Positions 6,522 through 40,744 of a stretch of 41,249 nucleotides of DNA are shown here, piece by piece; the first letter of the stretch is position 1; each line of letters begins with the position of its first letter. The stretch comes from Candidatus Binatia bacterium (GTDB taxonomy: Bacteria; Desulfobacterota; Binatia; JACPRU01). The DNA lies in contig JBEVNX010000217.1 of NCBI GenBank assembly GCA_040507895.1, forward strand, positions 1-41,249. Reading direction: 5' to 3'. Under the pieces are notes generated by a model that had not been told where the DNA came from, made no database searches, and saw only the letters and a program-made list of their open reading frames with translations. The position numbers and the translations under genes were made by a program.

Positions 6522-6573
6522 GGAACGAACCGGCTGTCCGTTGGTTAGAACACGGCATGCGAATCTTGGTTTC
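6522..6573. promoter_or_regulatory. Two overlapping divergent ECF-type promoters (surE and DAG kinase)
   Basis: Plus strand GGAAC-N17-GTT at 6522-6546; minus strand GAAAC-N17-GTT at 6573-6549. Confidence 0.6.
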
Positions 6574-7363
6574 CAACGACGACGGCGTCTATAGCCCCGG
6601 AATCGCTGCGCTCGCCCGCGCGGCAGCCGACTTCGGCGAAGCGCGCGTCGTCGCGCCGGACGTCGAGCGCTCGTCCGCCGGGCACTCGATTACGTCCTCT
6701 CGCCCGCTGTCGTACAAGCGCACGCACCAACTTCCGGTCGAAGCTCACCGCGTGAACGGCACGCCCGCGGACTGCGTCGCGCTCGGCATCTCGCAATGGG
6801 ACAACGTCGACGTGGTGCTGTCGGGGATCAACCTGGGTCCGAATCTCGGCAACGGCATCTGGCATTCCGGGACGCTCGCGGCCGCCAAACAGGCGGCGCT
6901 GATGGGCCTGCCCGGGATCGCGCTCAGCATTTCCCTCCGCAAGGACGAGCCTGACTTCGAGGCGTTGCGCCCTGCCCTCTATGAAGTGCTTTCGCTGCTG
7001 CTGCCGAAACCGCCGTCGTTGTTGCTGAACGTGAATTTCCCGAACGAGCATCCGAAGGGAATACTCTGGACGAAGCAGTCCGTGCGGTTCTACGACGGCA
7101 AGGTCGTGCCGGGTCGTGACCCCATGGACCGGCCGCACTTCTGGTTCACGGTGGTACCGATCACGGAGACGGAGGAAGGCACGGACCGATGGGCCGTGTC
7201 GCGAGGCTTCACCTCGATCACGCCGCTCCGCCTCGACCTCACGGACCATGACGAGCTCGAGCGCGCCATCGCTCGGCATGGCAACGCCGAGGCCGAAAAG
7301 GTCAGGGCCGAACCGCCGAGCGGTGCGGACGAGCCGGGGGTCGTGGATCTGAACGCCAAATGA
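6557..7363 (+). CDS. surE: 5'/3'-nucleotidase SurE
   Basis: MRILVSNDDG, GTPADCV, SGINLGPN, SGTLAAA, SITPL motifs. Confidence 0.95.
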   Translation: MRILVSNDDGVYSPGIAALARAAADFGEARVVAPDVERSSAGHSITSSRPLSYKRTHQLPVEAHRVNGTPADCVALGISQWDNVDVVLSGINLGPNLGNGIWHSGTLAAAKQAALMGLPGIALSISLRKDEPDFEALRPALYEVLSLLLPKPPSLLLNVNFPNEHPKGILWTKQSVRFYDGKVVPGRDPMDRPHFWFTVVPITETEEGTDRWAVSRGFTSITPLRLDLTDHDELERAIARHGNAEAEKVRAEPPSGADEPGVVDLNAK

Positions 7364-7453
7364 AAGCGCGATTGGCCTAGGCCTAGCCGAGCGTTCGAGC
7401 GAGCAGCGTCTTCAAGAGGCAAACGGGGAGGCCGCGTTCGAAGCTCGGCTGCG

Positions 7454-9285
7454 TCACGAACCGCCACGATCGACCGTACTGGCCTCGCGGGTGCGCGCTG
7501 CTCCCGAACGAGCGCCCCCTGCCGAGATGGCCTTCTCGAGGTTCCACGCCGTGTTGATCAAACCGACGTGAGAGAAGGCCTGCGGGAAGTTTCCCGTCAG
7601 ACGTCGAGCGCTCGGATCCCATTGTTCGCTGAGGAGACCCACGTCGTTGCGCAAGCGGAGCAGGCGCTCGAAGAGCTCGCGGGCCTCATCGAAACGCCCT
7701 TGGAGCGCGAGGTTGTCCGCCAGCCAGAACGTGCAGATGATGAACAGCCCTTCCCCAGGCGGCAATCCGTCCACCCGTTGGTGCGTCCTGTACCGAGCGA
7801 CGAGGCCGTCGACGAGCAGGCGCTCCTGCACCGCTCGCACCGTCCCGAGCATGCGAGGATCCGTCGCCGGCAGAAATCCGACCAACGAAAACAAGAGCGA
7901 GCTCGCATCGACGTCCTTCGCTCCGTAGTACTGCACGAACGAGCCGAGCTCGGCGTCGAATCCCTCGCGAAGCACTTCTTCGCGAATCGTGTCGGCGAGC
8001 GACACCCAGCGATCGAGTTGTCCCGCACGCCCGCTTCGGACGGCTCTCACCGCGCGGTCGACCGCGACCCACGCCATCACCTTGGAGTGCGTAAAGTGGC
8101 GCCGGGTACCGCGTACCTCCCAGATGCCCTCGTCCGGCCGCTGCCAGTCGGACTCCAGGAATCGAACCATCGCCGCCTGCACACGCCATGCATTCTCGCT
8201 CGGCTCGAGGCCGACTCGCGCGGCGAAATCGATCAAGCCGGCGACCTCGCCGCCGATGTCCAGCTGTCGCTGAGCGAACGCGGCGTTGCCGATGCGCACT
8301 GGACGCGCGCCCTCGTAGCCGGGAAGCCAGGGAACGTTGAACTCGGTCAGCCGGCGTTCGCCGGCCAGGCCGTTAGACGGTCTGAGTTTCGGACGGCTTA
8401 CCGGCGACTGCGCGCAGCAGCCATTCCCGCCATGCGCGGGCCTCCTTGACATAGCCGCCGATCATCAGTGCATGCAGCGCAAAGGCGGCGTCGCGGAGCC
8501 ATAGCGATAGTCCCCATTGCGCATGCCGCCGAGCTGCTCGGGAAGCGAGGTCGTCGCCGCTGCGCAAATGCCTCCCGTGGGTGCGTACGTGAGCGCTTTG
8601 AGGGTGATCAGCGAGCGCTGCACCGCGTCCCGCCATGCGCCCTCGTAGCAGCAGCGTTCGGACCAGTCTCGCCACCAGTCCTCGGTCTCCCGCAGACTAT
8701 CGAGCGAATCCCGGGGCGCAGGCGCGCGTAGGTGAGATGGGTACCAGGTCAGTGTGAATGGCACTCGCTCGCCGGCTCGAACCGAAAAGTCGGCGCACGT
8801 TTGGAAGTTCTCGCCTCGGAGCTCGACATCGGTCGTGAAACGGATGGTCTCCGGACCGGCGGTGGCGCGGATGCCCCCGTCGATGCGGCGGACCCAGGGG
8901 GACGACCGAGCCATAGTCGAAGCGGATCGCTAGCTCCATCCTCGTCGTCACCTGTCCGCCGAGTCCCTCGACGATGCGGACGAGGTCAACCGCCTCCGAT
9001 CGCGGAGGCATGAAGTCGATGAGGCGCACCGCGCCAGTGGCGGTCTCGTACTCGGTCTCCAGCACGAGCGTTCCCGGCCGGTAGGGCTCGCCGAGTCGCC
9101 GACACACGATTGGCCGCTGGGGGCCAGCATCCATCGACCGTGCTTCGGAGAACCGAGCAGCGCGGCAAAGCACGCCCCGGAGTCGAACCGAGGCAAGCAC
9201 AGCCAGTCGATCGACCCGTCGCGCGCGACCAGAGCGGCCGAATGGCAGTCGCCGTTCAGCGCGTAGTCTTCGATCCTGGAGGCAT
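7454..9285 (-). pseudogene. Glycoside hydrolase family 15 (glucoamylase/trehalase-like), multiply frameshifted
   Basis: Consecutive GH15 motifs lie in different frames: RIEDYALNGDCHSAALV..DGSIDWLCLPRFDS; TLVLET..RFDYG; AAATTSLPEQLGG.RN.DYRY; WLRDAAF; PDEGIWEVRG..HFTHSKVMAW..GNFPQAFSH. The likely ATG at 9285 is itself out of frame. Confidence 0.88.
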
Positions 9286-9373
9286 TCTTCGGGTTCAATC
9301 GGTATGAACCGCGGAGCGCGGGCGGCGTCGCGAGCGTCTTCGCGACCCTCGCCGACATCACGTGTTTAGGGCG

Positions 9374-9398
9374 GCAACGGCGAGTCCTGCCGGGGGTT
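9374..9398 (+). promoter_or_regulatory. ECF-type promoter GCAAC-N17-GTT, 5 nt before the ATG at 9404 (possibly leaderless); the reverse reading TGAAC-N17-GTT faces the GH15
   Basis: Sequence gcaac ggcgagtcctgccgggg gtt cacct atg. Confidence 0.6.
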
Positions 9399-9403
9399 CA
9401 CCT

Positions 9404-9781
9404 ATGGTCTCGAATCCTGGTCTTCCAGAGCAACCATCGATGATGAGCGCGGCCGAGCGGGTACTTTCGGCCAGCCAACAGCTCGTCGTCGATCGGATCG
9501 ATCTTCTGATCCTCGAGGCCAAGGCGGCGATGATCCGTGGACTGGAGGCCGCGGTCATCGCCGGCATCGCGGTCGGAGTGTTCTTCTGCGGCTGGCTTTG
9601 CATCAACGCTTCGCTGGCCTTCTTCTTCAAAGCGACCGCGTCCCTCTCGGGAATCCTGGCCGTGCTCGCCGCGGTCAATCTGGGTGTCGGCCTCTTCGCG
9701 ATCGCGGCCGCTCGCCTGCTCGCGACGCCAAAGCGCAATACGGAGAGCAGCCGACCCGATTCACAGGGGGGCGGAGCGTGA
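9404..9781 (+). CDS. Two-TM membrane protein, YqjE/phage-holin-III-like
   Basis: N-terminal amphipathic RIDLLILEAK followed by two TM helices; first gene of a yqj-like small-protein operon. Confidence 0.6.
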   Translation: MVSNPGLPEQPSMMSAAERVLSASQQLVVDRIDLLILEAKAAMIRGLEAAVIAGIAVGVFFCGWLCINASLAFFFKATASLSGILAVLAAVNLGVGLFAIAAARLLATPKRNTESSRPDSQGGGA

Positions 9782-9978
9782 GCGCGGACGATCCGATCGA
9801 GGAAGAGAAGGAGCGGCTTCGCGAGGCAGCGGCGAACAGTGCGGAGGAGCTCAAGGAGGCCGTCGGCGAGCTCGCGGCGGCGGCGCAGAGTCAAGCGAAC
9901 GGAGTGATCGAGACCAGCCGTTGGGTGTGGCTCTATGCCGGGTTCTCGGTGGGCTTGTTTTTCGGCCTTCGACGCTGA
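9778..9978 (+). CDS. Small tail-anchored coiled-coil protein (YqjK/DUF3618-like)
   Basis: GTGA overlap with the previous stop; acidic coiled coil, then C-terminal TM ending GLRR. Confidence 0.6.
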   Translation: MSADDPIEEEKERLREAAANSAEELKEAVGELAAAAQSQANGVIETSRWVWLYAGFSVGLFFGLRR

Positions 9979-10009
9979 GACAGAAAACACTTCGCAAAGG
10001 ATCACCACG

Positions 10010-10171
10010 ATGACCGAACAAACGAGCGAGCGGCAGAAGGTCAAGACCCGGACGGGAGAGCCTGACGCGGCGAAGCAGATCCAGCAATTCGTCGATGACT
10101 ATCCCTTGCTTTCTCTCGCCTTCGTGGTCGCAGCGGGCTACGCGATCGGCCGTATCATCTCCAAGCTCTAG
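10010..10171 (+). CDS. Small ElaB/YqjD (DUF883)-like tail-anchored protein
   Basis: FVDDYPLLSLAFVVAAGYAIGRI matches the V.e.P..s...a...G..iG C-terminal pattern; RBS AAGGA. Confidence 0.65.
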   Translation: MTEQTSERQKVKTRTGEPDAAKQIQQFVDDYPLLSLAFVVAAGYAIGRIISKL

Positions 10172-10181
10172 GAGCTCGAAC

Positions 10182-10472
10182 ATGAGCAGCGCTTCCAGTC
10201 GGGTCGTCCCGCCGCGCCGAGCGGCCTCCAGGCCGAGCTTCGCCGACCTCGTCGGCGAGCTCGAGGATGCCCTGCGTCTGCGGCTGAGAGAAAGCCCCGC
10301 CCTGACCTTCGCCGTTGCGGGTGGGGTTGGTTACGCTCTCGGCGGCGGCTTGACTGTCGGGGTGTTGGCTCGTGCGTTGCAGCTCGGGCTTCGTGCCATC
10401 GTGGCCAATCGCGCGGAACAGATCCTCGCCGATTGGGTGACGATGAGTCGTCGGACAGAGGATGCTCGATGA
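10182..10472 (+). CDS. Small membrane protein with DUF883-like TM motif
   Basis: RESPALTFAVAGGVGYALGGG; RBS AGGAG. Confidence 0.6.
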   Translation: MSSASSRVVPPRRAASRPSFADLVGELEDALRLRLRESPALTFAVAGGVGYALGGGLTVGVLARALQLGLRAIVANRAEQILADWVTMSRRTEDAR

Positions 10473-10773
10473 GCCTCGAATCGAGGCGCGGGAGACTCAA
10501 AAGATGAACCTTCGTGATTTCACTGACCGCCTCTCCACTCAGGAGCTTGCCAGGCTCTTCCGAGCCGAACCGGACCGTTCACAGTCCGAATCGCTGCTCG
10601 GCTCCTTGGCACTGCTAGGCGCCGGCGCCTTGATCGGGGCGGCGGTGGCACTCTTTCTGGCGCCAAAGCCGGGGGCCGAGCTCCGCGAGGAGCTGCGGGA
10701 TCAGCTTCGTTCCACGGGCGAGACGCTCGCCAGCGTGGCTGGGGTCCGGACCGCGAAGCCTCACGAAGGCTGA
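10462..10773 (+). CDS. YtxH-domain general stress protein
   Basis: GALIGAAVALFLAPKPGAELREEL is the YtxH signature. Confidence 0.8.
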   Translation: MLDEPRIEARETQKMNLRDFTDRLSTQELARLFRAEPDRSQSESLLGSLALLGAGALIGAAVALFLAPKPGAELREELRDQLRSTGETLASVAGVRTAKPHEG

Positions 10774-10820: not shown

Positions 10821-11252
10821 TCACTGGCACGCGGCCGCCAGCCGAGAGACGCTCCTCCTGCGTCGATCGATCTCCAGAGCCTCGCGGACGCTGCTCACCA
10901 GCCGCTCTGGATCCACCGGTTTGACGAGTAGGTCGACGGCCGTTGCGCGTAGCGCGTGCGCGAGACGCGAAGAAGGTTTATCGTCGGCGAGGATGATGGT
11001 CGGCGGTAACACGGCTCCACGAGCGAAGTCCTCCACGGCCTCCGGTCCGTTCGATCCCGGCATGGTGAGGTCGAGGAGCAGACAACCCGGCCGCGACGGG
11101 TCGAAGGCGGCTACGAACAGGTCCGGACGATCGTAGACGACTACCTCGACTCCGAGATGCCCTTTGAGAAGAATCTGCAAAGGCTCGGCGGCGATCGGGT
11201 CGTCATCGACGATAAAAATCGTGCTCCGGTTGTCGATCCCCATTTCCTTCAT
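10821..11252 (-). CDS. Stand-alone FixJ-like receiver-domain response regulator
   Basis: IFIVDDD, GCLLLDLTMPG, KPVD; no output domain; start is 11252 or 11243. Confidence 0.8.
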   Translation of the reverse strand: MKEMGIDNRSTIFIVDDDPIAAEPLQILLKGHLGVEVVVYDRPDLFVAAFDPSRPGCLLLDLTMPGSNGPEAVEDFARGAVLPPTIILADDKPSSRLAHALRATAVDLLVKPVDPERLVSSVREALEIDRRRRSVSRLAAACQ

Positions 11253-11386
11253 TCCAACACCGCCGCCTGCGAGAGAGACCGTTCTTCGTAGCGAATCTTG
11301 TAAAAATCGGTGCGCCATGGGACCGTGGCGGGCGCTCAACGCGGCGAATCTTTAGAGATTGCTACTGAGTTTGCAGCTACGAACCC

Positions 11387-13090: not shown

Positions 13091-13294
13091 TCAGCCGTTG
13101 AGACGCGAAGCCCAAGTGTCGATCTCGCGCTCCGCCCTCTCCTTCTCCATTCCGTATGCCTCCTTCAGGGCGCCGACCAGCTGATCGCGCTTGCCCGCGA
13201 TGACGTCGAGCTCGTCGTCCGTGAGCTTGCCCCACTTCTCCTTCACCTTCCCGCGCAAGCGATCCCATTTGCCTTCGATCTGTTCCCAATTCAT
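13091..13294 (-). CDS. csbD: CsbD family general stress protein
   Basis: MNWEQIEGKWDRLRGKVKEKWGKLTDDEL..I.GKRDQLVG; RBS AAAGGAGG. Confidence 0.93.
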   Translation of the reverse strand: MNWEQIEGKWDRLRGKVKEKWGKLTDDELDVIAGKRDQLVGALKEAYGMEKERAEREIDTWASRLNG

Positions 13295-13405: not shown

Positions 13406-13430
13406 AACAGCCGGGTGGTGCCCAAGTTAC
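13406..13430 (-). promoter_or_regulatory. ECF-type promoter GTAAC-N17-GTT upstream of csbD
   Basis: Minus strand gtaac ttgggcaccacccggct gtt. Confidence 0.6.
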
Positions 13431-13466: not shown

Positions 13467-14183
13467 TCACGCCTGGGCGACGCGCCTCGCAAGGCTCTTC
13501 CCGAGCCAGCCTCGAGTGGCCGGGCCGAACGCGAAGTCTGTTTCCTTGTGTTCGCGCCGGCCACGACGGCTACGCCTCGTTGGCGGTCTCGGCGAACACT
13601 GCTCGCCATTCCCCTCGTTCATGGCTTCGCGCAGCGTACGCGTGGCGCGGAACACGAGGCTCTTCACCGCAAACTCGGAGACGCCGAGGCAGCTTGCAAC
13701 CTCGCGGTGGTCGAACCCTTCCACGCGAGAGAGCAGCAGCGCGGCCCGCTGCTTGAACGGCAGGTCGAGGACCTTGTCGGCGATGCGGGAGACGATCTCC
13801 CGATCCATGACCAAGTGGTCCGGCGCCTGCGTTGTGTCGTCGGCCAGCAGTCGAGTCTCCCCCGGAACGGTCTTCTCGTGATCGAGCCGGCGGATCTCAT
13901 TCAGACAGTTGTTGGTGACGACCCGATAGATGTACGTGGAGAATCGGGCGCACGGAGTGTAGCGGTCACGCGCGCGGTAGATCTGTAGGAACGCGTCCTG
14001 AACGAGCTCCTCCGCACGCCAGCGATCACGGACGATCCGGTAGGCGAAGCTCACGAGCCGCTTCGCGTATCGCTCGAAGAGCTCCGAGAATGCCGCGTCA
14101 TCACCCGCTTTCGTTCGTAGCATGAGCTCGACGTCGAAATCGTTTCCATCGAGCTGAAGTTCTGCTGTCGCTGGATTGGTCAT
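13467..14183 (-). CDS. ECF (sigma70 group 4) RNA polymerase sigma factor with basic C-terminal tail
   Basis: Region 2 GDDAAFSELFERY..AEELVQDAF..FSTYIYRVVTN; region 4 LP.KQRAALLL...EVA..LGVS..AVKSLVFRA; RBS GGGAGG. Confidence 0.92.
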   Translation of the reverse strand: MTNPATAELQLDGNDFDVELMLRTKAGDDAAFSELFERYAKRLVSFAYRIVRDRWRAEELVQDAFLQIYRARDRYTPCARFSTYIYRVVTNNCLNEIRRLDHEKTVPGETRLLADDTTQAPDHLVMDREIVSRIADKVLDLPFKQRAALLLSRVEGFDHREVASCLGVSEFAVKSLVFRATRTLREAMNEGNGEQCSPRPPTRRSRRGRREHKETDFAFGPATRGWLGKSLARRVAQA

Positions 14184-14253
14184 TAGTCGCCTCCCTGAAG
14201 CAGCGTTGGGAGACTTCAAAAGCAAATACCGGTCCGAATGCGCGTAGATCGAC

Positions 14254-14278
14254 AACTATCCGATTTTTCTGAGATTAC
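14254..14278 (-). promoter_or_regulatory. Putative autoregulatory ECF promoter GTAAT-N17-GTT
   Basis: Minus strand gtaat ctcagaaaaatcggata gtt, about 70 nt upstream of the ECF start. Confidence 0.5.
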
Positions 14279-14311
14279 AGCGAAGAGAAGGTGGGGACTC
14301 TCAAGCAGAAT

Positions 14312-14398
14312 GGTAAAATTTACCGAACCGCCTGTGTAAATCATTCAAAGACACGCGCCGCCGTGTAAATTCTACAAACGACAAATCGAAAAATTACA
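14312..14398. promoter_or_regulatory. Four 13-bp palindrome-like operator sites, consensus about TGTAAA-N-TTTACA
   Basis: GGTAAAATTTACC (14312), TGTAAATCATTCA (14335), TGTAAATTCTACA (14364), TCGAAAAATTACA (14386) within an AT-rich intergenic stretch. Confidence 0.55.
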
Positions 14399-14526: not shown

Positions 14527-14799
14527 ATGGACATCGACCGGGCAAGCCGCTGGCGTAGGCGAGTCTTGGGGGTGGCGAGCGTAATCCGCAACAGCCCGAA
14601 CCACCGTTGGGACACGATAGAGCTCGCGCTGGAGTGTGGCCACCGTCATGCCATCCTTCGACTCCACAAGGTGCAAGAGCGGATCTCGGTGGCGCAGAGG
14701 CCCACCTGGAGCGGCGGTGACCTGCCTTGCACCAAGTGCATGAGCCTCCATCGGATCCGGGGGAAGCTACGACGTACGCCGGACCGGGTCGCCGGCTGA
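14527..14799 (+). CDS. Small putative Zn-binding protein (LECGH...CxxC; DUF3565-like)
   Basis: LECGHRH and CTKC motifs; G-rich RBS-like sequence; overlaps the 3' end of the convergent gene by 33 nt. Confidence 0.4.
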   Translation: MDIDRASRWRRRVLGVASVIRNSPNHRWDTIELALECGHRHAILRLHKVQERISVAQRPTWSGGDLPCTKCMSLHRIRGKLRRTPDRVAG

Positions 14800-16170
14800 G
14801 TTGGTCGACTTTCCCGGGGTGCCGCTATTCTCGCCTTGGTAAGAGCTCAATCGGGTATAGAGTGTCTTCAGGCTGATGCCGAGAAGCTCGGCGGCCTTAC
14901 GCTTGCTGCCCGAGACGTGTTCCAAGGTGGCGAGAATGAGTCGCCTCTCATTCTCCGCGAGCGACGAGCCGACTTTGAGGTAGAGCCCTTCCCCGCCCTG
15001 CGCAGCCGCGCGCCCGTGGATCTCCGGTGGTAAGCAGTCGGGCGCGATCTCGTCTCCGGCCACGATGAAGGCCCGCTGAATGGCGTTCTTGAGCTCGCGG
15101 ACGTTGCCCTTCCATGGATGGGCATGGAGAAACTCGCGCGTCTCTTTCGCCAGGCGCTTCTCGGTTTTGTACTCCCGCTGGAGTTGGGCGACGAAGTAGT
15201 CCGCGAGCAAATCGATGTCGTGCTCGCGCTCGCGCAGCGGCGGCAGCGTGATCCGAAAGGAGCTCATGCGGTAGAGCAGGTCGTGTCGCAACTTGCCGGC
15301 CGCGACGGCCGATTCCGGATTCGCATTTGTGGCAGCGACCAGACGCACGTCGGTCTTGATCGCCTGCTCGCCTCCCACGCGGGTGATGGTGCTGGTCTCG
15401 AGCGCCCGCAGCAGCTTGACCTGGGACTCGGGCGGCATCTCCGTGATCTCGTCGAGGAACAACGTACCGCCGCTCGCTTGCTCGAAGAGCCCCTTGTGCT
15501 GTCGGGTGGCTCCGGTGAAGCTCCCCTTCTCGTGCCCGAAGAGCTCGCTCTCGATCAAAGTCGGGGACACGGCGCCACAGTTGACCGCCACGAATCGACG
15601 CCCACGACGCGCGCTGAGCGAGTGGACGACGGTCGCCACCTCCTCTTTGCCGGTACCACTCTCACCGGTCAGGAGCACCGAAACGTCCGTCGGCGCGACC
15701 TTGCCCACCAGGTCGTACACTTCCTGCATCGCCTTCGACGCACCGATCAGCGGACCGAAGCTGCCCAGCTCGAACAGCGCGCTGCGCATGGCGTCGAGCT
15801 CGCGCTTTAGCTCACTGGCCCGAGCGACGCTCAGGAGAATCGTCTTGAGCCGGTCGGCATCGATCGGCTTGGTCAAATAATCGGCGGCTCCGAGGCGCAG
15901 CGCTTCCACCGCGGAATCGACGCTCGCACTGCCGGTAATCAGAACGATCTGCGTCGACGCGCACGACTGGAGCTGCCTCATGATTTCGAGGCCGCTCCCA
16001 TCCGGGAGCATGAGATCGAGCAAGGCGACGTCGGGCGTTTGATGCTGTGCTACGGCTCGAGCTTCGGCGAGGGATCCCGCGGGCAGCACGCGGAAGCCTT
16101 CCGCCTCCACGATCTCCACGAGCGCCGCGCGCGAAAGCTCGTCATCCTCGAGGATGAGTGCGCAGAGCAT
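14767..16170 (-). CDS. Sigma54-dependent response regulator (NtrC/AtoC family: REC, AAA+, Fis HTH)
   Basis: REC domain; GESGTGKE; ESELFGHEKGSFTGA; LFLDEI; WKGNVRELKN; HTH AAELLGISLKTLY. Confidence 0.95.
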   Translation of the reverse strand: MLCALILEDDELSRAALVEIVEAEGFRVLPAGSLAEARAVAQHQTPDVALLDLMLPDGSGLEIMRQLQSCASTQIVLITGSASVDSAVEALRLGAADYLTKPIDADRLKTILLSVARASELKRELDAMRSALFELGSFGPLIGASKAMQEVYDLVGKVAPTDVSVLLTGESGTGKEEVATVVHSLSARRGRRFVAVNCGAVSPTLIESELFGHEKGSFTGATRQHKGLFEQASGGTLFLDEITEMPPESQVKLLRALETSTITRVGGEQAIKTDVRLVAATNANPESAVAAGKLRHDLLYRMSSFRITLPPLREREHDIDLLADYFVAQLQREYKTEKRLAKETREFLHAHPWKGNVRELKNAIQRAFIVAGDEIAPDCLPPEIHGRAAAQGGEGLYLKVGSSLAENERRLILATLEHVSGSKRKAAELLGISLKTLYTRLSSYQGENSGTPGKSTNSAGDPVRRTS

Positions 16171-16209: not shown

Positions 16210-17085
16210 TCAAAAGCGCCCGGGCCGACGCCGTTGCGACCGCTTCGCAGGCGGGCCGCTCACCCGCGTCGACTGCTGGCCCGTATACACCAGTGCCACG
16301 GCTGCTTCCGGCAGCAAGGCTCGGAAGGTCAGGCTCTCCAAAAGGTACAGCTTCACGGTCGCGGAGTCGTGTGAATCATAGCCGACCGAAAGGTCCTGCC
16401 CGACCGTCAGCTCGAAGAATCCCGGCCGCGTCCCGAGCACGACCGCGCCGTCGACGGCGGGCGCCCAAATCGCGGGGCCGTCGAGGAGCTTGTGGACGAG
16501 CTCCATCACCGGCCAACCGCCACGCGCGGTCGCTTGCATGAGCCCTGCAAAGCAGCGCGGTCCGAGCGCGATCGCGTACGGCCCGTCGACGCCGACAGCG
16601 CGCAGCACGCGCGTCGCTTCCGCGACCGTGCCGGGGTACTGCTCGTAGCTCTCGGAGATGGGGAGCGCCGAGTGGGGGCTCGCCTCGCAGATGCCGCGGA
16701 TCTTACCCGCTGCGTAACCCTGGAACACGACCTCATCCTCGGCGTGGGCGATCCGAGTCGCCGCTGCGATCAGTGGCTCGAGGTCCGCGTCTGCCGCGCC
16801 TCGGCCGAATGCGTCGAGCTCGGCGCGCGCCAGCTCGAAGGTCGTTCGCAATTCGATGAGGGGCTGGACGACACGCAACGCCGCCTCGACTCCCTGCTTC
16901 GGGCCCGAAGGAAGCGGTTGCAGACGGCCGACGTTGACGGCGCCACACTTCCAGCCGAGCGGCCCATGGAAGTCCACCAGACGGCGCGCGGCGAGGTTCG
17001 CTTTCAAAACGCGCGTCGCCTCGGCGTCGAGAGCCGACCACGCGTCCGAAGAGATCGGCGCCAGCTCGCGATGGAGATCGTTCAT
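16210..17085 (-). CDS. Family 1 encapsulin shell protein (Linocin M18-like)
   Basis: MNDLHRELAPIS..AW......A......LAARRLVDF.GPLGW, AEDEVVFQGY, GVDGPY, ELTVGQDLSVGY, ESLTFR. Confidence 0.95.
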   Translation of the reverse strand: MNDLHRELAPISSDAWSALDAEATRVLKANLAARRLVDFHGPLGWKCGAVNVGRLQPLPSGPKQGVEAALRVVQPLIELRTTFELARAELDAFGRGAADADLEPLIAAATRIAHAEDEVVFQGYAAGKIRGICEASPHSALPISESYEQYPGTVAEATRVLRAVGVDGPYAIALGPRCFAGLMQATARGGWPVMELVHKLLDGPAIWAPAVDGAVVLGTRPGFFELTVGQDLSVGYDSHDSATVKLYLLESLTFRALLPEAAVALVYTGQQSTRVSGPPAKRSQRRRPGRF

Positions 17086-17447
17086 CGATCGTTCCGTAGG
17101 CTACCGATGCCCAACGAGCCGTCGCCGGTCGAGGCTTCGGCGGCCTCGACCTCCCTTTCCCTGTCGACGATCGAGCCCTCGGAGAACAGATAGAGGCGAA
17201 GCGCCGACTCGATGGCGGAGTCTCTCCGCCGCAGCCATTCGAGCACCATCGCGGCGTGCTCCTTCTCCTCGTCGCGGTTGTGCGCGAGTATTTGCTTCAG
17301 CTCCACGTCCTCGGCGGCATCGATTCGTTGATCGTACCAGTCGATGGCCTCGAGCTCCTCCTGAAGAGAGGAAAGAGCGCGGTGGCGATCCATCGTTGCG
17401 CGGTCGAGACGATCCTCGGCTTCGTGAAGCCCGACGCTGTTGGCCAT
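17082..17447 (-). CDS. Encapsulated ferritin-like cargo protein (EncFtn/Flp) with cargo-loading peptide
   Basis: HRALSSLQEELEAIDWYDQR...HNRDEEKEHAAM.LEWLRR; C-terminal DGSLGIGSLR targeting peptide; ATGA overlap with the shell gene. Confidence 0.95.
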   Translation of the reverse strand: MANSVGLHEAEDRLDRATMDRHRALSSLQEELEAIDWYDQRIDAAEDVELKQILAHNRDEEKEHAAMVLEWLRRRDSAIESALRLYLFSEGSIVDREREVEAAEASTGDGSLGIGSLRNDR

Positions 17448-17508: not shown

Positions 17509-17534
17509 GTAACCTCATCCTGTCCCAGTGTTCA
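17509..17534. promoter_or_regulatory. Symmetric ECF-type element between the divergent SOD and encapsulin operons
   Basis: Plus strand GTAAC-N16-GTTCA; minus strand TGAAC-N16-GTTAC. Confidence 0.55.
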
Positions 17535-17560: not shown

Positions 17561-18187
17561 ATGGCCAACGATTCATATCGAGTGAAAGAGTTCAACCTTT
17601 CTGGGTTGACCGGCATCTCCGATAGGACCCTCGAGACCCACTTCAAGCTCTATGAGGGCTACGTCAAGGAGACGAACCGGCTCAACGAGAAGATCTCCGA
17701 GCTCATTCGGCACGGCAAGGTCGATCGCGAAGAGATGCCGGAGTATTCCGAGCTCACCCGGCGCCTGGGGTTCGAGTACAACGGAATGACGCTTCACGAG
17801 TACTACTTCGGCAACCTACGGCGCGGCGGCTCCGGCGACCCGGAGCGCACTTCGCGTTTCGCGAAAGCCGTTCGGTCGTCGCTCGGCAGCTATGCGATCT
17901 GGAAGGCGGAGTTCGCCAGCATCGGTCAAATGCGCGGCGTCGGCTGGGCGATCTGCTACGAGGATCCCGAGAACGGCCGGCTCTCGAATCACTGGATCAC
18001 GCTGCATGAGGTCGGCAACGTCGCGGGCTTCCGGCCGATTCTGGTGATGGACGTCTGGGAGCACGCCTATCTGCTCGATTACAAGCCCTCGGAGAAGAAC
18101 AAGTACATCGAGGCGTTCTTCGCCAACATCGACTGGGGGGCGGTCGAAGCACGGCTCGAAGCCGGCGGTACCCGACGCGCCGCTTAG
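17561..18187 (+). CDS. sod: Fe/Mn superoxide dismutase family protein
   Basis: ETHFKLYEGYV, LHEYYF, GWA, MDVWEHAYLLDY; RBS GAGGAG. Confidence 0.9.
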   Translation: MANDSYRVKEFNLSGLTGISDRTLETHFKLYEGYVKETNRLNEKISELIRHGKVDREEMPEYSELTRRLGFEYNGMTLHEYYFGNLRRGGSGDPERTSRFAKAVRSSLGSYAIWKAEFASIGQMRGVGWAICYEDPENGRLSNHWITLHEVGNVAGFRPILVMDVWEHAYLLDYKPSEKNKYIEAFFANIDWGAVEARLEAGGTRRAA

Positions 18188-25050: not shown

Positions 25051-25115
25051 GGGCCGTGTTTGATTTTGCAGTCCGCAGTTTGGCCGAGCGCGCAACGCGC
25101 ATGACGTAGAGCGTT

Positions 25116-25250: not shown

Positions 25251-25397
25251 ATGTCCCCTCTGCTATTGATTCTGATCTTGCTCTTGCTGTTCGGCGGTGG
25301 CGGTGGCTACTACGCGTACGGACCAACGGGTGGACTCGGAATCGGCGGGATCATCCTCCTCGTCTTGATCGTGTTGCTCCTCACAGGACGATTGTAG
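25251..25397 (+). CDS. 48-aa membrane microprotein, DUF3309-like
   Basis: Not in ORF track. RBS AGGAGG; MSPLLLILILLLLFGGGGGYYAYGPTGGLGIGGIILLVLIVLLLTGRL. Confidence 0.85.
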   Translation: MSPLLLILILLLLFGGGGGYYAYGPTGGLGIGGIILLVLIVLLLTGRL

Positions 25398-26472: not shown

Positions 26473-26503
26473 GGCCTGCTTCGATCGCTTGAGCGGGAGC
26501 TCG

Positions 26504-30390: not shown

Positions 30391-30392
30391 TC

Positions 30393-31973
30393 ATGTCTTC
30401 GGTGATCGATCCGCCGACTCTCGTTCTCGTCGTCGACGACAACGACACTGCCCGGTACGCCAAGTGCCGCATCCTGCGCCGGGCTGGGTTCGAGGTCATC
30501 GAGGCCGTGGACGGAACCAACGCCTTGCGACTCGTGGAAGAGCGCAAGCCGCGATTGGTCGTGCTCGACGTCCGGTTGCCGGGACTCGACGGGTGGGCGG
30601 TCTGCCGCAAGATCAAGGCGAACCCCCTGACGGAGGCCGTGCTCGTGCTGCAGATGTCCGCCACGTTCGTCAGCGAGGGGGACACCGTTCGTGCGCTCGA
30701 AGGAGGAGCCGACGGTTGCTTGACGGAGCCCTGCGATCCGACGGTTCTTCTGGCGACGATTCGCGCGTTGTTGCGCGCGCGTCTCGCAGAGGATGCGCTG
30801 CGCGAAGCGCTTTCCCGGGAACAGTCGCTGCGGACCGTCGCCGAGGCCGCGAACCGCGCGAAGGATGAATTCCTCGCTACGCTGTCGCACGAGCTGCGCT
30901 CGCCCCTCAGTGCGATTCTCACCTGGGTGAATTTGATGCGTGCCGGCCGACTCGACCAGCCGCGTACCGAGCGCGCCGTCGAGGCCATCGAGCGCAACTC
31001 GCGGCTTCAGCTGCGACTGATCGAAGACTTGCTCGACGTCTCGCGAATCATCTCTGGGAAGATGAAGATCGAGCTCACGCACGTCGATCTCGGAGCCGTG
31101 GTCGCGACGGCCCTCGAGAACTTACAGAGTGCAGCGATGTCGAAGCGCCTGCAGATCGATTCGTTCATCGATCCTTCCATGGGCCCGGTTTCGGGAGATG
31201 CGGCCCGACTGCAGCAGGTGGTGGGCAATCTGCTGTCGAATGCGGTGAAGTTCACGCCGGAGGACGGCCGCATCATGGTCAGCGTCAAGGCCGTAGACTC
31301 ATTTGCGCAGATCGAGGTCACGGACACCGGTATCGGAATAGACGTCGAGATGTTGCCACACATCTTTGAACGATTTCGCCAAGTGGACTCGTCGACGACA
31401 CGGACGGAAGGGGGCCTCGGCTTGGGGCTCGCGCTCGTTCGGCACTTCGTGGAGCTGCACGCGGGTTCCGTCGAAGCCAGGAGCGAGGGATTGGGCAAAG
31501 GGGCGACCTTCCTCGTGCGGCTACCGCTGGCGCCCGTACGCCCCTCCGCGAGCAAGGTCGGCGCCGTTCCTCCCCTGCGGGCAAAGCTTCCAGGCGTCAA
31601 GCTGCCGAGCCTCGCGGGCATTCGTGTCTTGGTCGTCGACGACGAATCCGACGGGCGTGAGGCGGTGGCTCTCGTCCTCGAGCACTGCGGCGCCTCCGTC
31701 AAGACGGCCGGCTCGGTCGCGGAGGCGATGTCAGCCTTCAGCAGCGCCGTATTCGACGCAGTCGTCAGCGACATCGCAATGCCCTCAGAGGACGGGTTCG
31801 CGCTGATCGCGCGATTGCGCGCTCACGGCGACACTCCGGCGCTCGCCTTGACCGGGTACGTGGGCCAAGAAGACCGGCAGCGCATTCTCGCTGCCGGATA
31901 CCAAACCTGCTTGACCAAGCCGGTCGCCGCAGCGGAACTGGGTGAAACCATCGCGAGGCTCGTTCAGAGCTGA
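30393..31973 (+). CDS. Hybrid histidine kinase (REC, HisKA, HATPase, REC)
   Basis: VVDDN..LDVRLP; SHELRSPL; NLLSNAVKFT; GLGLGL; C-terminal REC DIAMP. Confidence 0.93.
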   Translation: MSSVIDPPTLVLVVDDNDTARYAKCRILRRAGFEVIEAVDGTNALRLVEERKPRLVVLDVRLPGLDGWAVCRKIKANPLTEAVLVLQMSATFVSEGDTVRALEGGADGCLTEPCDPTVLLATIRALLRARLAEDALREALSREQSLRTVAEAANRAKDEFLATLSHELRSPLSAILTWVNLMRAGRLDQPRTERAVEAIERNSRLQLRLIEDLLDVSRIISGKMKIELTHVDLGAVVATALENLQSAAMSKRLQIDSFIDPSMGPVSGDAARLQQVVGNLLSNAVKFTPEDGRIMVSVKAVDSFAQIEVTDTGIGIDVEMLPHIFERFRQVDSSTTRTEGGLGLGLALVRHFVELHAGSVEARSEGLGKGATFLVRLPLAPVRPSASKVGAVPPLRAKLPGVKLPSLAGIRVLVVDDESDGREAVALVLEHCGASVKTAGSVAEAMSAFSSAVFDAVVSDIAMPSEDGFALIARLRAHGDTPALALTGYVGQEDRQRILAAGYQTCLTKPVAAAELGETIARLVQS

Positions 31974-34096: not shown

Positions 34097-34408
34097 GCGT
34101 TGCGAAAAGGAAGGAGACGAATACCGCGGGAGCACTCCGTGCGGAGCACCCTCCGCTCGGGACACGGATGGCCTTCGGTGCCGCGCTTCGAGTTCCGCAG
34201 CCGAATGACGACGGCCCGGAGCGTCTAAGGATAGCGGCGAGTGCTGCCTTAATCTCCCCTTCAGCGAGCTACCTGAATTGGATTTCTGGCAGCACCCTTC
34301 CGCTATCGAACCTTGCAAACACGCGCGGCCGCGCAGCGTCGCGACGAATTGGCCGAATGGATCCGGCCAACGCGCGACACCGCGTCGCGCCGCCAGTTCA
34401 ACGTTCAT

Positions 34409-34699
34409 ATGCCAGCGAAGTCGAAGACACCGGGGACGATCCCCTTGGCAGTGATGGCGGGCACTCTCCTCGGCATCGCCGCGATCGTCGCGCCCGCACG
34501 TTCCGAGCTGCCGTCTTCCGAGGTGCCCGGCAGCTCTCCCGCTGGGGCGGCGGCGACGCCGACGCCAGAAGGAGTGCCCACGCCTGCAGTCCGTGACCCG
34601 AACTTCCCGAAGCCGGAACCGATCGCGCCGCGCAGCAAACCCGACTCCCCGCCAAGCCTTCCCGGAAGCGGGCGGCAAGACACGGTTCCGGGAAGCTGA
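34409..34699 (+). CDS. Small secreted proline-rich protein
   Basis: Signal peptide-like N-terminus and a Pro-rich body; GCGAC-N17-GTT element at 34374-34398. Confidence 0.55.
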   Translation: MPAKSKTPGTIPLAVMAGTLLGIAAIVAPARSELPSSEVPGSSPAGAAATPTPEGVPTPAVRDPNFPKPEPIAPRSKPDSPPSLPGSGRQDTVPGS

Positions 34700-34749: not shown

Positions 34750-34950
34750 TCATCCCTTCTTTTTCGTGCTGCCTCCTCGCTTCCTCGGCACCTTCGCGCC
34801 CTCTCGCCGGGCCTCCGAAAGTCCGATCGCGATTGCCTGTTTGCGGCTCTTGACCGTCTTACCCGACCGCCCCGACTTGAGGGTGCCGCGCTTCCGTTCG
34901 TGCATCGCCTTGCGAACTATGGCCGAGGCCTTCTTGCCGTAACGTGCCAT
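34750..34950 (-). CDS. Small basic protein, DUF6496-like
   Basis: MHERKRGTLKSGRSGKTVKSRKQAIAIGLSEAR; RBS AGGAGG. Confidence 0.85.
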   Translation of the reverse strand: MARYGKKASAIVRKAMHERKRGTLKSGRSGKTVKSRKQAIAIGLSEARREGAKVPRKRGGSTKKKG

Positions 34951-35154
34951 CGCAAACCTCCTGAAGGCTCAAAGCGGGGTCAGGCAGTCGAGTTGCTTGA
35001 GGTTTCGAGGAAGCCGCGCGCATTTGGGACGGAAGACACCGCCGACGACGAAGCATCCGCGCGATGCCAAGCCCAGCTTTCGGGGTTTGAACGTTTCAGG
35101 TCCCTGCCCGTGTGTCTTGTTGCAACGATCGATCAGGGACGAGGAGGCCACCCC

Positions 35155-37382: not shown

Positions 37383-37711
37383 CTCGCACCTTTCGAGCTC
37401 GGCAGACCGAGGTCGGCCGTCTCCACTACAGACAAGTTTACCGGACACAGGGGTAAACTCCGCCGTGCGTCCAGGTTTCGCTGAGAGCTCTTGGCCAATC
37501 CCCATTGGTCCGTCGGCCGACGTCGATCTGCCGACGTTGCCGATCCATCGACACCCCCCACGGCCCAGTGCGTCGCAACGTTGGATCGCGCGGGTTGTTT
37601 CTATCCTATCGGGATTTAGATGCTCGCGCAGCTCGGCGCCGTGCGTGGATTGGCCGGCGCGACCAAGGATGCGTCCTTGCCATGCCGCGAGCGCAAGAAG
37701 GAGGTTCTCCA

Positions 37712-37909
37712 ATGATGTCCACCTCGAGATTCCTAGTGGCTATGGCTACGATCCTGGTTCTCCTCGGAGCCGCCGCCTGCAAGCAATACGACACGACCGA
37801 CACGACGCCCCCGGCGCCCAGCGCTTCGGTGCCGCGCGACAGCGAACGAGCGATGCCAGACGTGAACCGCCAGCCGCAATCCGAAAGACCCAATCCCAGC
37901 ACTCCATAG
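37712..37909 (+). CDS. Small proline-rich lipoprotein
   Basis: RBS AAGGAGG; lipobox AAAC. Confidence 0.7.
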   Translation: MMSTSRFLVAMATILVLLGAAACKQYDTTDTTPPAPSASVPRDSERAMPDVNRQPQSERPNPSTP

Positions 37910-38465: not shown

Positions 38466-39160
38466 CGTTGAGAATCCTTCCCAAAACCGAACCAGCGAAG
38501 ACCGATTCGATTGAGCTACCGAGCCGGTTTCTCGACCGTCCGAGATTGAACGGCCTTGAATTTGCGCCCTTGAGCCAGGCTCTACATCCGGAAGTCGCCG
38601 CCATCCTGCAGGCCAACCGTTTCGCTCGCTTTCTCGCCAGGGGCACGCTGCCGCGGGTGCTCGATGATGCCGGAACGAGGCTCTGCGGGTGGTGCCGGTT
38701 CCCGCTCGACCGGCGGACCACCGCTTGGTGCTCCGACGAATGCGCGGACGAGTTCTGGATTCGGTTTTCCCGAACGCATGTGGCCCGGCTCGTTCATCGG
38801 CGCGATCGGGGTGTGTGCGCGATTTGTGGCCTCGATACCGAGCAACTTTCACGCATCGTGGGCCGGCTGCGGGATCGGTCCGATCGCAGGTGGTTGCGCT
38901 CCGGCAACTACCGCGATCCGACCGACCTCGACGCCGCGCGTTGGGAGCGGATGCGCTCCGAGCTAGCCAGTCGCGGTTTCGGGTTCGTCGACCGGTGGCA
39001 CACGCCGACCCTTTGGGAAGCGGATCACATCGTTGCGATCATCGAAGGGGGCGGATGCTGCGGGCTCGAGAACTATCGAACGCTGTGCGTTCCCTGCCAC
39101 CGTGGGGAAACCCGCTTGCTTCGCAAGCGCATGCGTCGCCAGGGGAGCTTCCGGCTGTAG
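38459..39160 (+). CDS. HNH endonuclease with Zn-finger motifs (true start probably further downstream)
   Basis: CGWC..WCSDEC, RDRGVCAICG, WEADHIVAIIEGGG..GLENYRTLCVPCH. Confidence 0.85.
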   Translation: MPSLRILPKTEPAKTDSIELPSRFLDRPRLNGLEFAPLSQALHPEVAAILQANRFARFLARGTLPRVLDDAGTRLCGWCRFPLDRRTTAWCSDECADEFWIRFSRTHVARLVHRRDRGVCAICGLDTEQLSRIVGRLRDRSDRRWLRSGNYRDPTDLDAARWERMRSELASRGFGFVDRWHTPTLWEADHIVAIIEGGGCCGLENYRTLCVPCHRGETRLLRKRMRRQGSFRL

Positions 39161-39220: not shown

Positions 39221-39721
39221 TCACGCAGTTCGCGGGACGCTACGTCGCTGCTGGTCGTCGCTCCCGGGCCGAGCGACCGAATGCTGGCGATCCGCCTGCG
39301 GCTCGACGCCGACTCCGTGCACGAACACCAACTCCCCGCCGAGCCAGCCGCCGAACGCGAGCGGGAACAGACCAAGCACCGAAAGCGCCAGCGACCACGA
39401 GAACGGAGTCTGGATCAAGCGAGAGAGGAAGCTCATGGCGAACATGAGCAGCGCGAAGAGGTTCAACGCAACGTGCAGCAGCACCGTCCGGAAGATCGGG
39501 CTCTTGCGCAAGTACAAGCCGTCCATCAACCCCGGGAAGGCCGCAGCGGCCGCGCCCACGATGCCGCCACCCAGCGCGTAGCAGGCGGTCACATTCCAGG
39601 CGGGCGCTTTGGTGACCAGGAAGACCAGATCGCAAGCGAATGAGAACACCCAAAGTCCGATCGGGATCCCGACCAGCATGGGGTGCACCGGGTGGTGGGC
39701 GACACGGGCAGGAGTCCTCAC
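39221..39721 (-). CDS. DUF2231-like membrane protein
   Basis: HPVHPMLV..PIGL, PGLMD, H..LN, GGWLGGELVF.HGVGV; RBS AAGGAGG. Confidence 0.88.
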   Translation of the reverse strand: MRTPARVAHHPVHPMLVGIPIGLWVFSFACDLVFLVTKAPAWNVTACYALGGGIVGAAAAAFPGLMDGLYLRKSPIFRTVLLHVALNLFALLMFAMSFLSRLIQTPFSWSLALSVLGLFPLAFGGWLGGELVFVHGVGVEPQADRQHSVARPGSDDQQRRSVPRTA

Positions 39722-39742
39722 GAGTCACCTCCTTCCACTTCC

Positions 39743-39767
39743 AACAAGACCCCGCCGATTCGGTTGC
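39743..39767 (-). promoter_or_regulatory. ECF-type promoter GCAAC-N17-GTT
   Basis: Minus strand gcaac cgaatcggcggggtctt gtt, just upstream of the DUF2231 RBS. Confidence 0.6.
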
Positions 39768-39769
39768 AG

Positions 39770-40651
39770 TCAGCGCGCGGCGCGACGTCGCTGCTTCATG
39801 GCCGGTCTGCGCACAGCTTCCTTGGATCGCCGGGCCGGCTTTCGCTTGGCCGATCGCGACGATCCCTTCGCGGTCGCCGATGTCCGCGACAAGCTGGCCT
39901 TGAGAGCCTCCATCAGGTCGATGACCTGCGCGCGTCCGCGCGCCGGGGGTGAGACGATCACCTCTTCCCCTTCGGCCTTCTTCCGAATCAAGGCCCGCAC
40001 GCGGTCGCGGACCTCGTCCGGGTAGCGCTCGGGATGAAATTCATCATTTTCCGCTTGCTCGATGAGACGCTCGGCCAGCTTCAGCTCGGAGTCCTTCACC
40101 GCACCCTCGCCTTTCTGGAGCTCGACCGGCTTTCGCAGCTCGCCTCGATGATGGAGCTGATGCAAAACGAGCGACTCTCCGAACGCGCGAAGCAACACCA
40201 GGTATTGCTTTCCCCGAGCCGCATAGCGTCCGAGCGCCACGCGATTCGCTTTGCGCAGAGCCTGCGCAAGCAGCCGGTATCCCTTCGCCCCGGCTCTGTC
40301 GGGGCCTAGATAGTACGCCTTCACGAAGTAGATCGGGTCAATCGTCTCCGCCGGCAGGAACTCCTCGATCTCGATCGTCTGCGTTGACACTTGCTCGACG
40401 GCTTCGAGCTCCTGCGGCGTGAACGTTACAAAGCTCCCTTTCGCGACCTCGTACCCCTTCACCATCTCGTTGCGCGGAACGACTTCGCGATCCTTGGGGC
40501 AGAAGTATTGGATCCGGAGCCGCGAGCCGCATTTTTCGTGGAGCCAGTGGAACGCGAGCGTGTCGGCAGATTCCCCGGCCGGATAGAGCTTTACGGGTAT
40601 GGAGACTAGGCCAAAAGAAATCGTTGCAGATGCCAGGGCTCGCGTCGGCAC
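39770..40651 (-). CDS. ku: Non-homologous end-joining protein Ku
   Basis: ISFGLVSIPVKLY, VKGYE, IDPIYF..YYLGP, VIDLMEALKASL and a basic tail; RBS GGAGG before GTG. Confidence 0.95.
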   Translation of the reverse strand: MPTRALASATISFGLVSIPVKLYPAGESADTLAFHWLHEKCGSRLRIQYFCPKDREVVPRNEMVKGYEVAKGSFVTFTPQELEAVEQVSTQTIEIEEFLPAETIDPIYFVKAYYLGPDRAGAKGYRLLAQALRKANRVALGRYAARGKQYLVLLRAFGESLVLHQLHHRGELRKPVELQKGEGAVKDSELKLAERLIEQAENDEFHPERYPDEVRDRVRALIRKKAEGEEVIVSPPARGRAQVIDLMEALKASLSRTSATAKGSSRSAKRKPARRSKEAVRRPAMKQRRRAAR

Positions 40652-40744
40652 GGCTCCTCCCAAGACACAAACGCCCGACGGGGCGATCGGTCGCTCGCCC
40701 AGTGCCGTATCTCGCTCAATGCCGGCGGCGGCGGCAGCGCGACT

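Follow-up and report, generated by a model that had tools for sequence, protein, structure and literature searches.

We analysed a 41,249-nucleotide (nt) stretch of DNA from a Candidatus Binatia bacterium (contig JBEVNX010000217.1, in full; hereafter the window) and found a family of short two-block sequences, G[CT]AAC-N17(16)-GTT, positioned ahead of genes for stress protection. These copies are most likely promoters of the extracytoplasmic function (ECF) type for a compact set of stress-protection genes, read by the ECF sigma factor that is encoded in the window itself (13467-14183). The motif had been picked out by eye in a preliminary description of this DNA; what is new here is the probable control of the ECF gene by sigma-54 and an adjacent NtrC-like activator, which would make the system a sigma-54-to-ECF cascade. 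The window is a contig (C1 in our numbering) of a 3.54-Mb metagenome-assembled genome (MAG) in 254 contigs, with 67% G+C and 82.5% completeness. Its lineage is Binatota, and the nearest named relatives of the ECF sigma factor come from MAGs labelled Candidatus Binatota or "uncultured delta proteobacterium". Genes were called with a simple GC3-based caller (3,546 genes genome-wide, 89% coding) and named by Pfam and NCBIfam.

All 13 motif sites listed in the preliminary description are present in the sequence and read as described there. Counted over the whole window on both strands, GYAAC-N17-GTT has six matches against 0.86 expected, a number reached in none of 100 dinucleotide shuffles, and GYAAC-N16-GTT has two where 0.95 are expected, a count that 23 of 100 shuffles also reach and that by itself lacks significance. 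Because the motif had been chosen after the sequence was viewed, we searched the 35 upstream regions (5,104 nt) for dyads without bias: all 5-mers with one two-fold degenerate position were combined with N16 or N17 and a 3-mer and scored by a composition-corrected Poisson p-value. G[CT]AAC/GTT came out as the top dyad, present in 7 regions where 0.17 would be expected (p 6.9e-10); among 300 Markov shuffles the lowest p was 1.2e-7, and none reached the observed value. Raw dyad counts were set aside in favour of the corrected p-values, as their ranking was dominated by GC-rich dyads. The window holds eight exact copies, two of which (25036-25060 and 37575-37599, both on the plus strand) come in addition to those listed before. 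Seven are intergenic and the eighth, at 25036-25060, overlaps the stop codon of a glgX-like gene; none lies elsewhere in coding sequence. One-mismatch copies are in excess as well (12 rows against 3.43 +/- 1.86 in 500 shuffles), three of the 12 being alternative-spacing shadows of sites already counted. Several of these copies are probably real, though no single one can be called; an antisense control for them was discarded, being confounded by divergent regions and by the self-complementary AAC/GTT core.

No similarity was found among the copies outside the two blocks, and the motif is therefore not a repeat element. The bases that follow GTT do not complement the G[CT] that precedes AAC, which argues for a two-block promoter and not for a palindromic operator. 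At all four sites between same-strand genes the motif is oriented toward the downstream gene, and the distances to gene starts range from 21 to 135 nt. As proposed earlier, the motif has the shape of an ECF promoter, with AAC at -35, GTT at -10 and a 16/17-nt spacing. The genes it fronts are, as also proposed, of the general-stress type: csbD, the superoxide dismutase gene sod, DUF3309, DUF2231 and a yqjE-like operon (PF07332) of five small membrane proteins. When the copies were compared with EcfG promoters, AAC and GTT were present in eight of eight exact copies; a C before GTT occurs in only one of the eight, but in four of four orthologous csbD sites. The exact EcfG pattern GGAAC-N16/17-GTT was rejected as the wrong consensus, with only two matches in the window against 1.86 expected.

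The individual sites, whose coordinates are collected in Table 1, differ in quality. The csbD site is the best-supported candidate for an ECF-type promoter in the window. The sod site falls in a divergent region common to sod and to the genes for EncFtn, encapsulin and the activator, and the 65-amino-acid (aa) lipoprotein-like product behind the 37575 site matched no Pfam family. Three exact copies stand in tandem before DUF3309; directly after the second of them, a perfect direct repeat of 2 x 15 nt (GTCGCGAAGAGTAGG) occupies 25116-25145 on the plus strand and is followed by a Shine-Dalgarno-like sequence and a six-codon open reading frame (ORF). The sites at surE, at the diacylglycerol kinase (DAGK) gene and at a Pro-rich ORF are doubtful as promoters: at surE and the Pro-rich ORF, 10 nt separate the GTT from the start codon (the ATG at 6557 in the case of surE), and the DAGK copy overlaps the start codon of surE. 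The surE site, GGAAC-N17-GTT, is kept in comparison genome G002 and lost in G006, and no orthologue of the ECF gene was found in either. A longer reading of the Pro-rich frame, starting at TTG (128 aa, 34313-34699), matched no Pfam family. Of the 13 sites in the preliminary description, those of surE, DAGK, the Pro-rich ORF and the ECF gene are doubtful members.

The protein database contains about 40 metagenome proteins with 60-85% identity to the sigma factor, C-terminal tail included, and a metagenome scan yielded 12 orthologous contigs (L039-L050). The csbD promoter is kept in all four contigs (L039-L042) with window-like sequence after the sigma orthologue, in the form G[T/G/A]AA[C/T] or CTAAC, N17, CGTT; the second base of the -35 block varies freely (T/G/A), even between two close relatives. 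Contig L041 is syntenic with the window from treY to the ECF gene, and its sod site keeps both GTAACC and AGTGTT with five of the 16 spacer bases changed. The proposal that the local ECF reads the motif gains from this conservation of the csbD and sod sites beside its orthologues, and we consider it probable. The picture in genomes that carry other forms of the sigma factor is different. Five GTDB genomes of the same family have only a paralogue with 56-59% identity and show no synteny of the island, whose genes are scattered there, and no sigma orthologue was found at E <= 1e-60 in 400 other sampled genomes of the class. At the csbD loci of relatives there is no exact motif; nine of ten have no match at all, and the tenth (L022, in G005) has two loose matches of the GAAAC type. 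The sod orthologue of G004 has no exact copy by eye. Five DUF3309 copies in relatives were compared by blastn, a tblastn search with the low-complexity DUF3309 peptide having found nothing, and the motif is absent before four of them.

As a check, the preliminary description had proposed a comparison of upstream with coding regions over the whole genome. Seven of the 28 intergenic exact copies in the genome lie on this contig, which makes up 1.17% of the sequence. The 126 exact occurrences genome-wide are about as many as base composition predicts, and the upstream regions outside the contig give no clear excess. Within the limits of a fragmented, incomplete MAG, the data support a local, contig-wide promoter set, and a genome-wide regulon is not demonstrated. 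Outside this contig, G[CT]AAC-N23-GTT is as frequent in upstream regions as the N17 form (9 sense, 10 antisense) and may be a palindromic element.

The ECF sigma factor consists of sigma-2 and sigma-4 domains and a basic C-terminal tail (residues 193-238; window 13467-13610, minus strand) that ends in a helix containing W and L. Its best NCBIfam model is the generic ECF one, with no equivalog cut-off reached, and its nearest solved structures in the PDB are SigW, SigE and RpoE. Region 4 matches PF22233 at 33 bits, overlapping a stronger match to the generic Sigma70_r4_2. Orthologues of the 60-85% set share the tail, whereas the 55% paralogues, at 206-216 aa, lack it. Its AlphaFold predicted local distance difference test (pLDDT) score is below 50, a level at which a fold-back of the tail onto the sigma domains cannot be claimed. 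No anti-sigma gene adjoins the ECF gene: the 583 nt upstream are conserved non-coding promoter DNA, and downstream the csbD promoter starts 36 nt after the stop codon. A distant anti-sigma factor elsewhere in the genome is possible. Across the 12 orthologous contigs only the activator and csbD are conserved as neighbours of the sigma orthologue. A 58%-identical paralogue on another contig of the same genome (C221) is followed by a zf-HC2 anti-sigma gene. One metagenome protein (P0035) that reads as a sigma factor fused to a zf-HC2 anti-sigma was treated as a chimeric 1.3-kb contig, since nothing in the genome matches its N-terminal 235 residues and the match is confined to the sigma part.

The regulation of the ECF gene was approached by aligning the orthologous regions before the sigma gene from eight contigs. 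A block GGAYCG-N4-TTGCT, with GGAYCG and TTTGCT invariant in all eight, lies close to the start codon and resembles a sigma-54 promoter of the -24/-12 type; in the window it matches 9 of the 12 positions of the TGGCACG-N4-TTGCW consensus with canonical GG/GC spacing. The genome has an rpoN gene, and six of its seven exact matches to TGG[CT]A[CT]-N5-TTGC[AT] lie 30-133 nt before a same-strand gene, so this organism does use the canonical sigma-54 signal. The conserved columns of the alignment form a further block about 85 nt ahead of the -24 element, TTTGA..T.TACAC with the palindrome GGTAAA-T-TTTACC, which is a putative enhancer (upstream activating sequence) for the activator. The gene of this NtrC-like activator lies immediately upstream in the window and also precedes the sigma orthologue in L041, L046 and L049. 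Together these features suggest that the ECF gene is probably sigma-54- and activator-dependent. The preliminary description had listed a motif site before the ECF gene (GTAAT-N17-GTT, 14254-14278), which would imply autoregulation, a reading that does not hold up well. The site lies in an AT-rich segment between the palindrome and the -24/-12-type element, and apart from two A's in the -35 block, a single G in the spacer and a single T in the -10 block, no position of this segment is invariant. Six of eight orthologues retain GTT, and the -35 block reads GAAAn or GTAAn; four of the eight read TCAA-N4-TTR, a pattern like that of integration host factor (IHF) sites that fits equally well. The site may act as a weak feedback promoter of the ECF type or, alternatively, as an IHF-like site at which the DNA bends between the enhancer and the sigma-54 promoter. 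In the 5′ leader of the ECF gene (14189-14214, minus strand), GUCUCC(C) can pair with the Shine-Dalgarno (G)GGAGGC in a short hairpin; its consensus fold over the eight orthologues is weak (-4.2 kcal/mol, compensatory change in three of six pairs).

Four rhizosphere metatranscriptome runs from one study contained near-identical assembled contigs over csbD, the ECF gene and sod, and partly over the genes for the activator, encapsulin and EncFtn. Assembled RNA contigs cannot locate transcription starts, and DNA may be present in such libraries, so that the start of the sod contigs at 17556 and 17558, about 25 nt after the GTT of the sod site, gives no more than a weak hint. The end of one csbD contig, at 13379, lies below the GTT at 13406-13408. 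The interval 14209-14395 is free of RNA contigs, and gaps and ends of this kind do not decide between a sigma-54 and an ECF-type promoter for the ECF gene. The very high depth over csbD was ignored, as the contigs concerned are only 90-95% alike and come from other organisms.

Several observations weigh against a local ECF regulon under sigma-54 control. An RNA contig (X11, 13221-13670) crosses the csbD promoter; csbD may be read through from the ECF gene too, or DNA may have been in the library. In the 2,228 upstream regions outside this contig, N16 and N17 give five and seven matches against seven for N19 and nine for N23, with no clear peak at N16/17, and the 12 genes behind these matches look like ordinary metabolism. 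The DUF3309 site of the same-genus genome G001 reads GCAAC-N15-GTT, with a spacer 2 nt shorter. A search with the local ECF gave eight ECF-like matches in its own genome, and these other ECFs could read the motif. As to the sigma-54 element, a match at 9 of 12 positions is common (114 sites with a score of 9 or more in the 2,228 upstream regions), and its -24 half, GGACC, departs from GGCAC. The activator is absent from L043, L044, L045 and L050, being adjacent in only three of the seven other contigs with at least 700 nt upstream.

Other explanations of the motif were weighed against this evidence. That the copies recur by chance, or through the composition of AT-richer intergenic DNA, is now largely refuted: with only eight specified positions, a choice made after viewing the sequence and a genome-wide count near the base-composition prediction, such an artefact had to be considered, but the composition-corrected enumeration ranks the motif first beyond all 300 shuffles, and the csbD and sod sites are conserved across diverged contigs. 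It is very improbable that AAC-N17-GTT is instead a pair of half-sites for a dimeric DNA-binding regulator. The self-complementary core, the G[CT] prefix on the opposite strand in L040 and the position of several sites in divergent intergenic regions would suit an operator; however, the base after GTT complements [CT] at only two of seven sites and the next base complements G at only one of seven, and the uniform orientation of the same-strand sites and their distances to start codons fit promoters.

The motif could also be a real ECF-type promoter read by another ECF, for instance the C221 paralogue with its zf-HC2 partner, the local ECF having other targets. The other ECF-like genes of the genome, the use of AAC/GTT-type promoters by many ECF groups and the conservation of the paralogue's form in relatives (56-59% identity to the window's ECF) speak for this, yet in metagenome contigs the csbD promoter accompanies the local ECF's orthologue, the relatives with only the paralogue lack the motif at nine of ten csbD loci (with loose matches only at the tenth) and before four of five DUF3309 copies, and the sites are concentrated around the local ECF gene; we regard this reading as unlikely. 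Still less probable is a model along the lines of the preliminary description, an EcfG-like, autoregulated general-stress sigma factor with a genome-wide regulon, in which GTAAT-N17-GTT would be the promoter of the ECF gene itself. PMC8103513 (section 6.2) describes the canonical EcfG promoter as AAC at -35 with CGTT at -10, and the promoter shape, the gene set (reminiscent of alphaproteobacterial general-stress regulons), the PF22233 match and the GTT kept before most ECF orthologues all agree with it. The proposed likeness to EcfG nevertheless fails on its partners. No NepR-like ORF lies beside the sigma gene, and a search of the 82.5% complete genome for PhyR with NF006623, a model that passed its cut-off in one of 14 named control genomes, gave a best match of 41.2 bits against a cut-off of 240; this is therefore most probably not an EcfG-NepR-PhyR system. 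In addition, no specific equivalog was reached, the PF22233 match is outscored by the generic one, the motif is not in excess outside the contig, CGTT is rare among the exact copies, and the variable -35 block of the ECF-gene site sits inside a sigma-54-type architecture.

The model that we favour, local ECF-type promoters combined with an ECF gene driven by sigma-54 and its activator, has as a whole slightly better than even chances. Once phosphorylated, the NtrC-like response regulator would bind the conserved palindrome and turn on sigma-54 RNA polymerase at GGAYCG-N4-TTGCT, with the AT-rich, IHF-like segment in between. The amount of ECF would then be set by transcription, without a partner anti-sigma, and the ECF would most probably read the G[CT]AAC-N17(16)-GTT promoters of csbD, the Fe/Mn superoxide dismutase gene, DUF3309, the yqjE/ElaB-like membrane-protein operon, DUF2231 and the small lipoprotein, possibly also of treY/treZ/glgX behind sod and perhaps of DUF6496, ku and the receiver gene, giving a two-step cascade from sigma-54 through the ECF to stress genes. 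Each functional step here (which sigma factor reads which site, where the activator binds, what the signal is) we infer from the excess and placement of the motif, the conservation of two target promoters and of the -24/-12-like block with its palindrome, and the gene content.

Circuits of this design have precedents. In Pseudomonas syringae, hrpL is transcribed from a sigma-54 promoter under HrpRS, and in the account of PMC8999054 (section 3.1) HrpL (ECF32) lacks an anti-sigma partner and depends for its level on a sigma-54 promoter together with an enhancer-binding protein, the arrangement also proposed here. At the level of sequence, the likeness consists of the invariant -24/-12-like block, the upstream palindrome and the adjacent NtrC-like activator. 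The targets in the window, however, are stress-protection genes, where those of HrpL form a type III secretion system; a receiver domain in the activator and a conserved C-terminal tail on the sigma factor set the window apart as well. The -10 block differs too: the hrp-box consensus has CCAC, in contrast to the GTT of the targets here. In Borrelia burgdorferi, three papers (PMC2940757, PMC3037356, PMC4014564) describe an NtrC-like activator, Rrp2, that together with sigma-54 (RpoN) directly transcribes the RpoS gene. There, too, an activator and sigma-54 make a stress or adaptation sigma factor, but the second sigma is RpoS (group 2) and not an ECF, and organism and regulon are unrelated. The EcfG-NepR-PhyR system (ECF15), of which NepR and PhyR are defining parts, shares with the window AAC/(C)GTT promoters with 16-17-nt spacing before csbD-type general stress genes (PMC8103513, as above), and one source on EcfG describes it as exclusive to Alphaproteobacteria (PMC3892343). 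It differs from the present case, where NepR and PhyR were not found, autoregulation is not evident and control appears to be transcriptional, via sigma-54. The main text of the ECF reclassification paper (PMC7826278) makes no mention of sigma-54, NtrC or enhancer.

A possible signal input lies further along the window. Bacillus SigB is controlled through the RsbR-RsbS-RsbT stressosome and the RsbV/RsbW partner switch. The window encodes an RsbR/RsbS/RsbT-type module at a distance of about 9 kb from the activator gene and 11 kb or so from that of the ECF. Unlike in Bacillus, what comes after it is not an RsbV/RsbW partner switch but a pair of hybrid histidine kinases, of which one carries an N-terminal HATPase_c_2 domain, and the module seems to feed a phosphorelay. 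The ECF orthologue in contig L045 adjoins a hybrid kinase that is 46% identical to the kinase at 30393-31973. From this similarity and from proximity we speculate that the module and its kinases could be the input to the circuit. The full chain, from stressosome sensor and hybrid kinases through the NtrC-like activator and sigma-54 to an anti-sigma-free ECF with a regulatory tail and clustered protection genes (csbD, superoxide dismutase, trehalose synthesis, ElaB/YqjE-like, DUF3309, DUF2231 and perhaps Ku), is a tentative proposal that we hold to be doubtful in its entirety.

Table 1. Candidate promoter sites, regulatory elements and regulatory genes of the window.
Feature	Position	Strand	Description
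csbD site	13406-13430	-	exact GTAAC-N17-GTT, 111 nt before csbD (13091-13294)
sod site	17509-17532	+	exact GTAAC-N16-GTT, 28 nt before sod (17561-18187)
yqjE-like operon site	9374-9398	+	exact GCAAC-N17-GTT, 41 nt before operon 9440-10773
DUF3309, first tandem copy	25036-25060	+	exact GCAAC-N17-GTT, overlaps glgX-like stop codon
DUF3309, second tandem copy	25092-25115	+	exact GCAAC-N16-GTT, 135 nt before DUF3309; only exact copy with CGTT
DUF3309, third tandem copy	25182-25206	+	exact GTAAC-N17-GTT, 44 nt before DUF3309 gene (25251-25397)
Lipoprotein-like ORF site	37575-37599	+	exact GCAAC-N17-GTT, 112 nt before 65-aa ORF (37712-37909)
DUF2231 site	39743-39767	-	exact GCAAC-N17-GTT, 21 nt before DUF2231 gene (39221-39721)
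Receiver-gene site	11338-11362	-	one mismatch (GCAAT), 85 nt before single-domain receiver gene (10821-11252); candidate only
DUF6496 site	34972-34996	-	one mismatch (CTT in -10), 21 nt before DUF6496 gene (34750-34950); candidate only
ku site	40670-40694	-	one mismatch (GCGAC, AAC core broken), 18 nt before ku (39770-40651); weak candidate
surE and DAGK copies	6522-6573	both	surE GGAAC (+), DAGK GAAAC (-); doubtful as promoters
Pro-rich ORF site	34374-34398	+	one mismatch (GCGAC), GTT 10 nt before ATG of 95-aa ORF; doubtful
ECF-gene site	14254-14278	-	GTAAT-N17-GTT, between conserved palindrome and -24/-12-type element
Putative sigma-54 promoter	14221-14235	-	-24/-12 type, GGACCG-GTAT-TTGCT; 3' end 37 nt before ECF start codon
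Conserved upstream block	14312-14349	-	TTTGA..T.TACAC and palindrome GGTAAA-T-TTTACC (14312-14324); putative enhancer
ECF sigma factor gene	13467-14183	-	238 aa; sigma-2 and sigma-4 domains (Pfam), conserved basic C-terminal tail of about 45 aa
NtrC-like sigma-54 activator gene	14767-16170	-	receiver, AAA+ (GSFTGA, Walker A) and Fis-type helix-turn-helix; immediately upstream of ECF gene
Stressosome-type module and two hybrid histidine kinases	25615-31973	+	RsbR_N+STAS, STAS (RsbS-like), RsbT-like kinase, RsbW-like/PP2C fusion

The genes of the window follow one another in the order amoA/amoC-like, GMC oxidoreductase, DAGK-like, surE and GH15/trehalase-like (three ORFs); yqjE-like operon, receiver gene, hybrid kinase, csbD, ECF sigma and NtrC-like activator; encapsulin with EncFtn, Fe/Mn superoxide dismutase, treY/treZ/glgX and DUF3309; the RsbR/RsbS/RsbT-type module with its PP2C fusion and the two hybrid kinases; and TetR, DUF6496, DUF4124, Omp85, DUF2231 and Ku. 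The contig starts with AmoA-like (PF02461) and AmoC-like (PF04896) copper membrane monooxygenase genes (2-1603, minus strand), the amoA-like gene being incomplete at the contig end. The GH15/trehalase-like gene (7454-9358, minus strand) is split into TREH_N (8948-9358), the start of GH15 (8465-8914) and its remainder (7454-8299), a split that frameshifts or faulty assembly may explain; the gene and the yqjE-like operon are transcribed divergently, and the region of the 9374 motif is common to both. The EncFtn-encapsulin pair (16210-17447, minus strand) lies directly upstream of the activator gene on the same strand, an order kept in contig L041. In L029 (G001:C2:220500-223448), adjoining segments match 19573-19985 and 22415-22951 of the window, so that this locus, situated at a contig end, lacks about 2.4 kb of treY/treZ. 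A small ORF for an HNH endonuclease (38858-39160, plus strand) has small ORFs without annotation on one side and the DUF2231-ku genes on the other.

Binatota are widespread soil bacteria of which we know of no cultured member, and to our knowledge the organisation of the general stress response outside the well-studied phyla is largely unknown. Our literature search found no paper on Binatota sigma factors or stress response, in agreement with the earlier statement that no general stress regulon appears to have been described in this lineage. The orthologue family of the sigma factor, with its roughly 40 metagenome members, may be an undescribed ECF group with a conserved C-terminal tail. If the full chain from the stressosome-type sensor onward is true, it would add a third architecture to the two known from RpoS/SigB partner switching and EcfG-NepR-PhyR. 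The cascade alone, a stress-gene cluster with its own ECF and a sigma-54-to-ECF step in place of an anti-sigma switch, would extend the design principle of HrpL and RpoN-RpoS to environmental stress protection, and it would be concrete enough for tests in a heterologous host.

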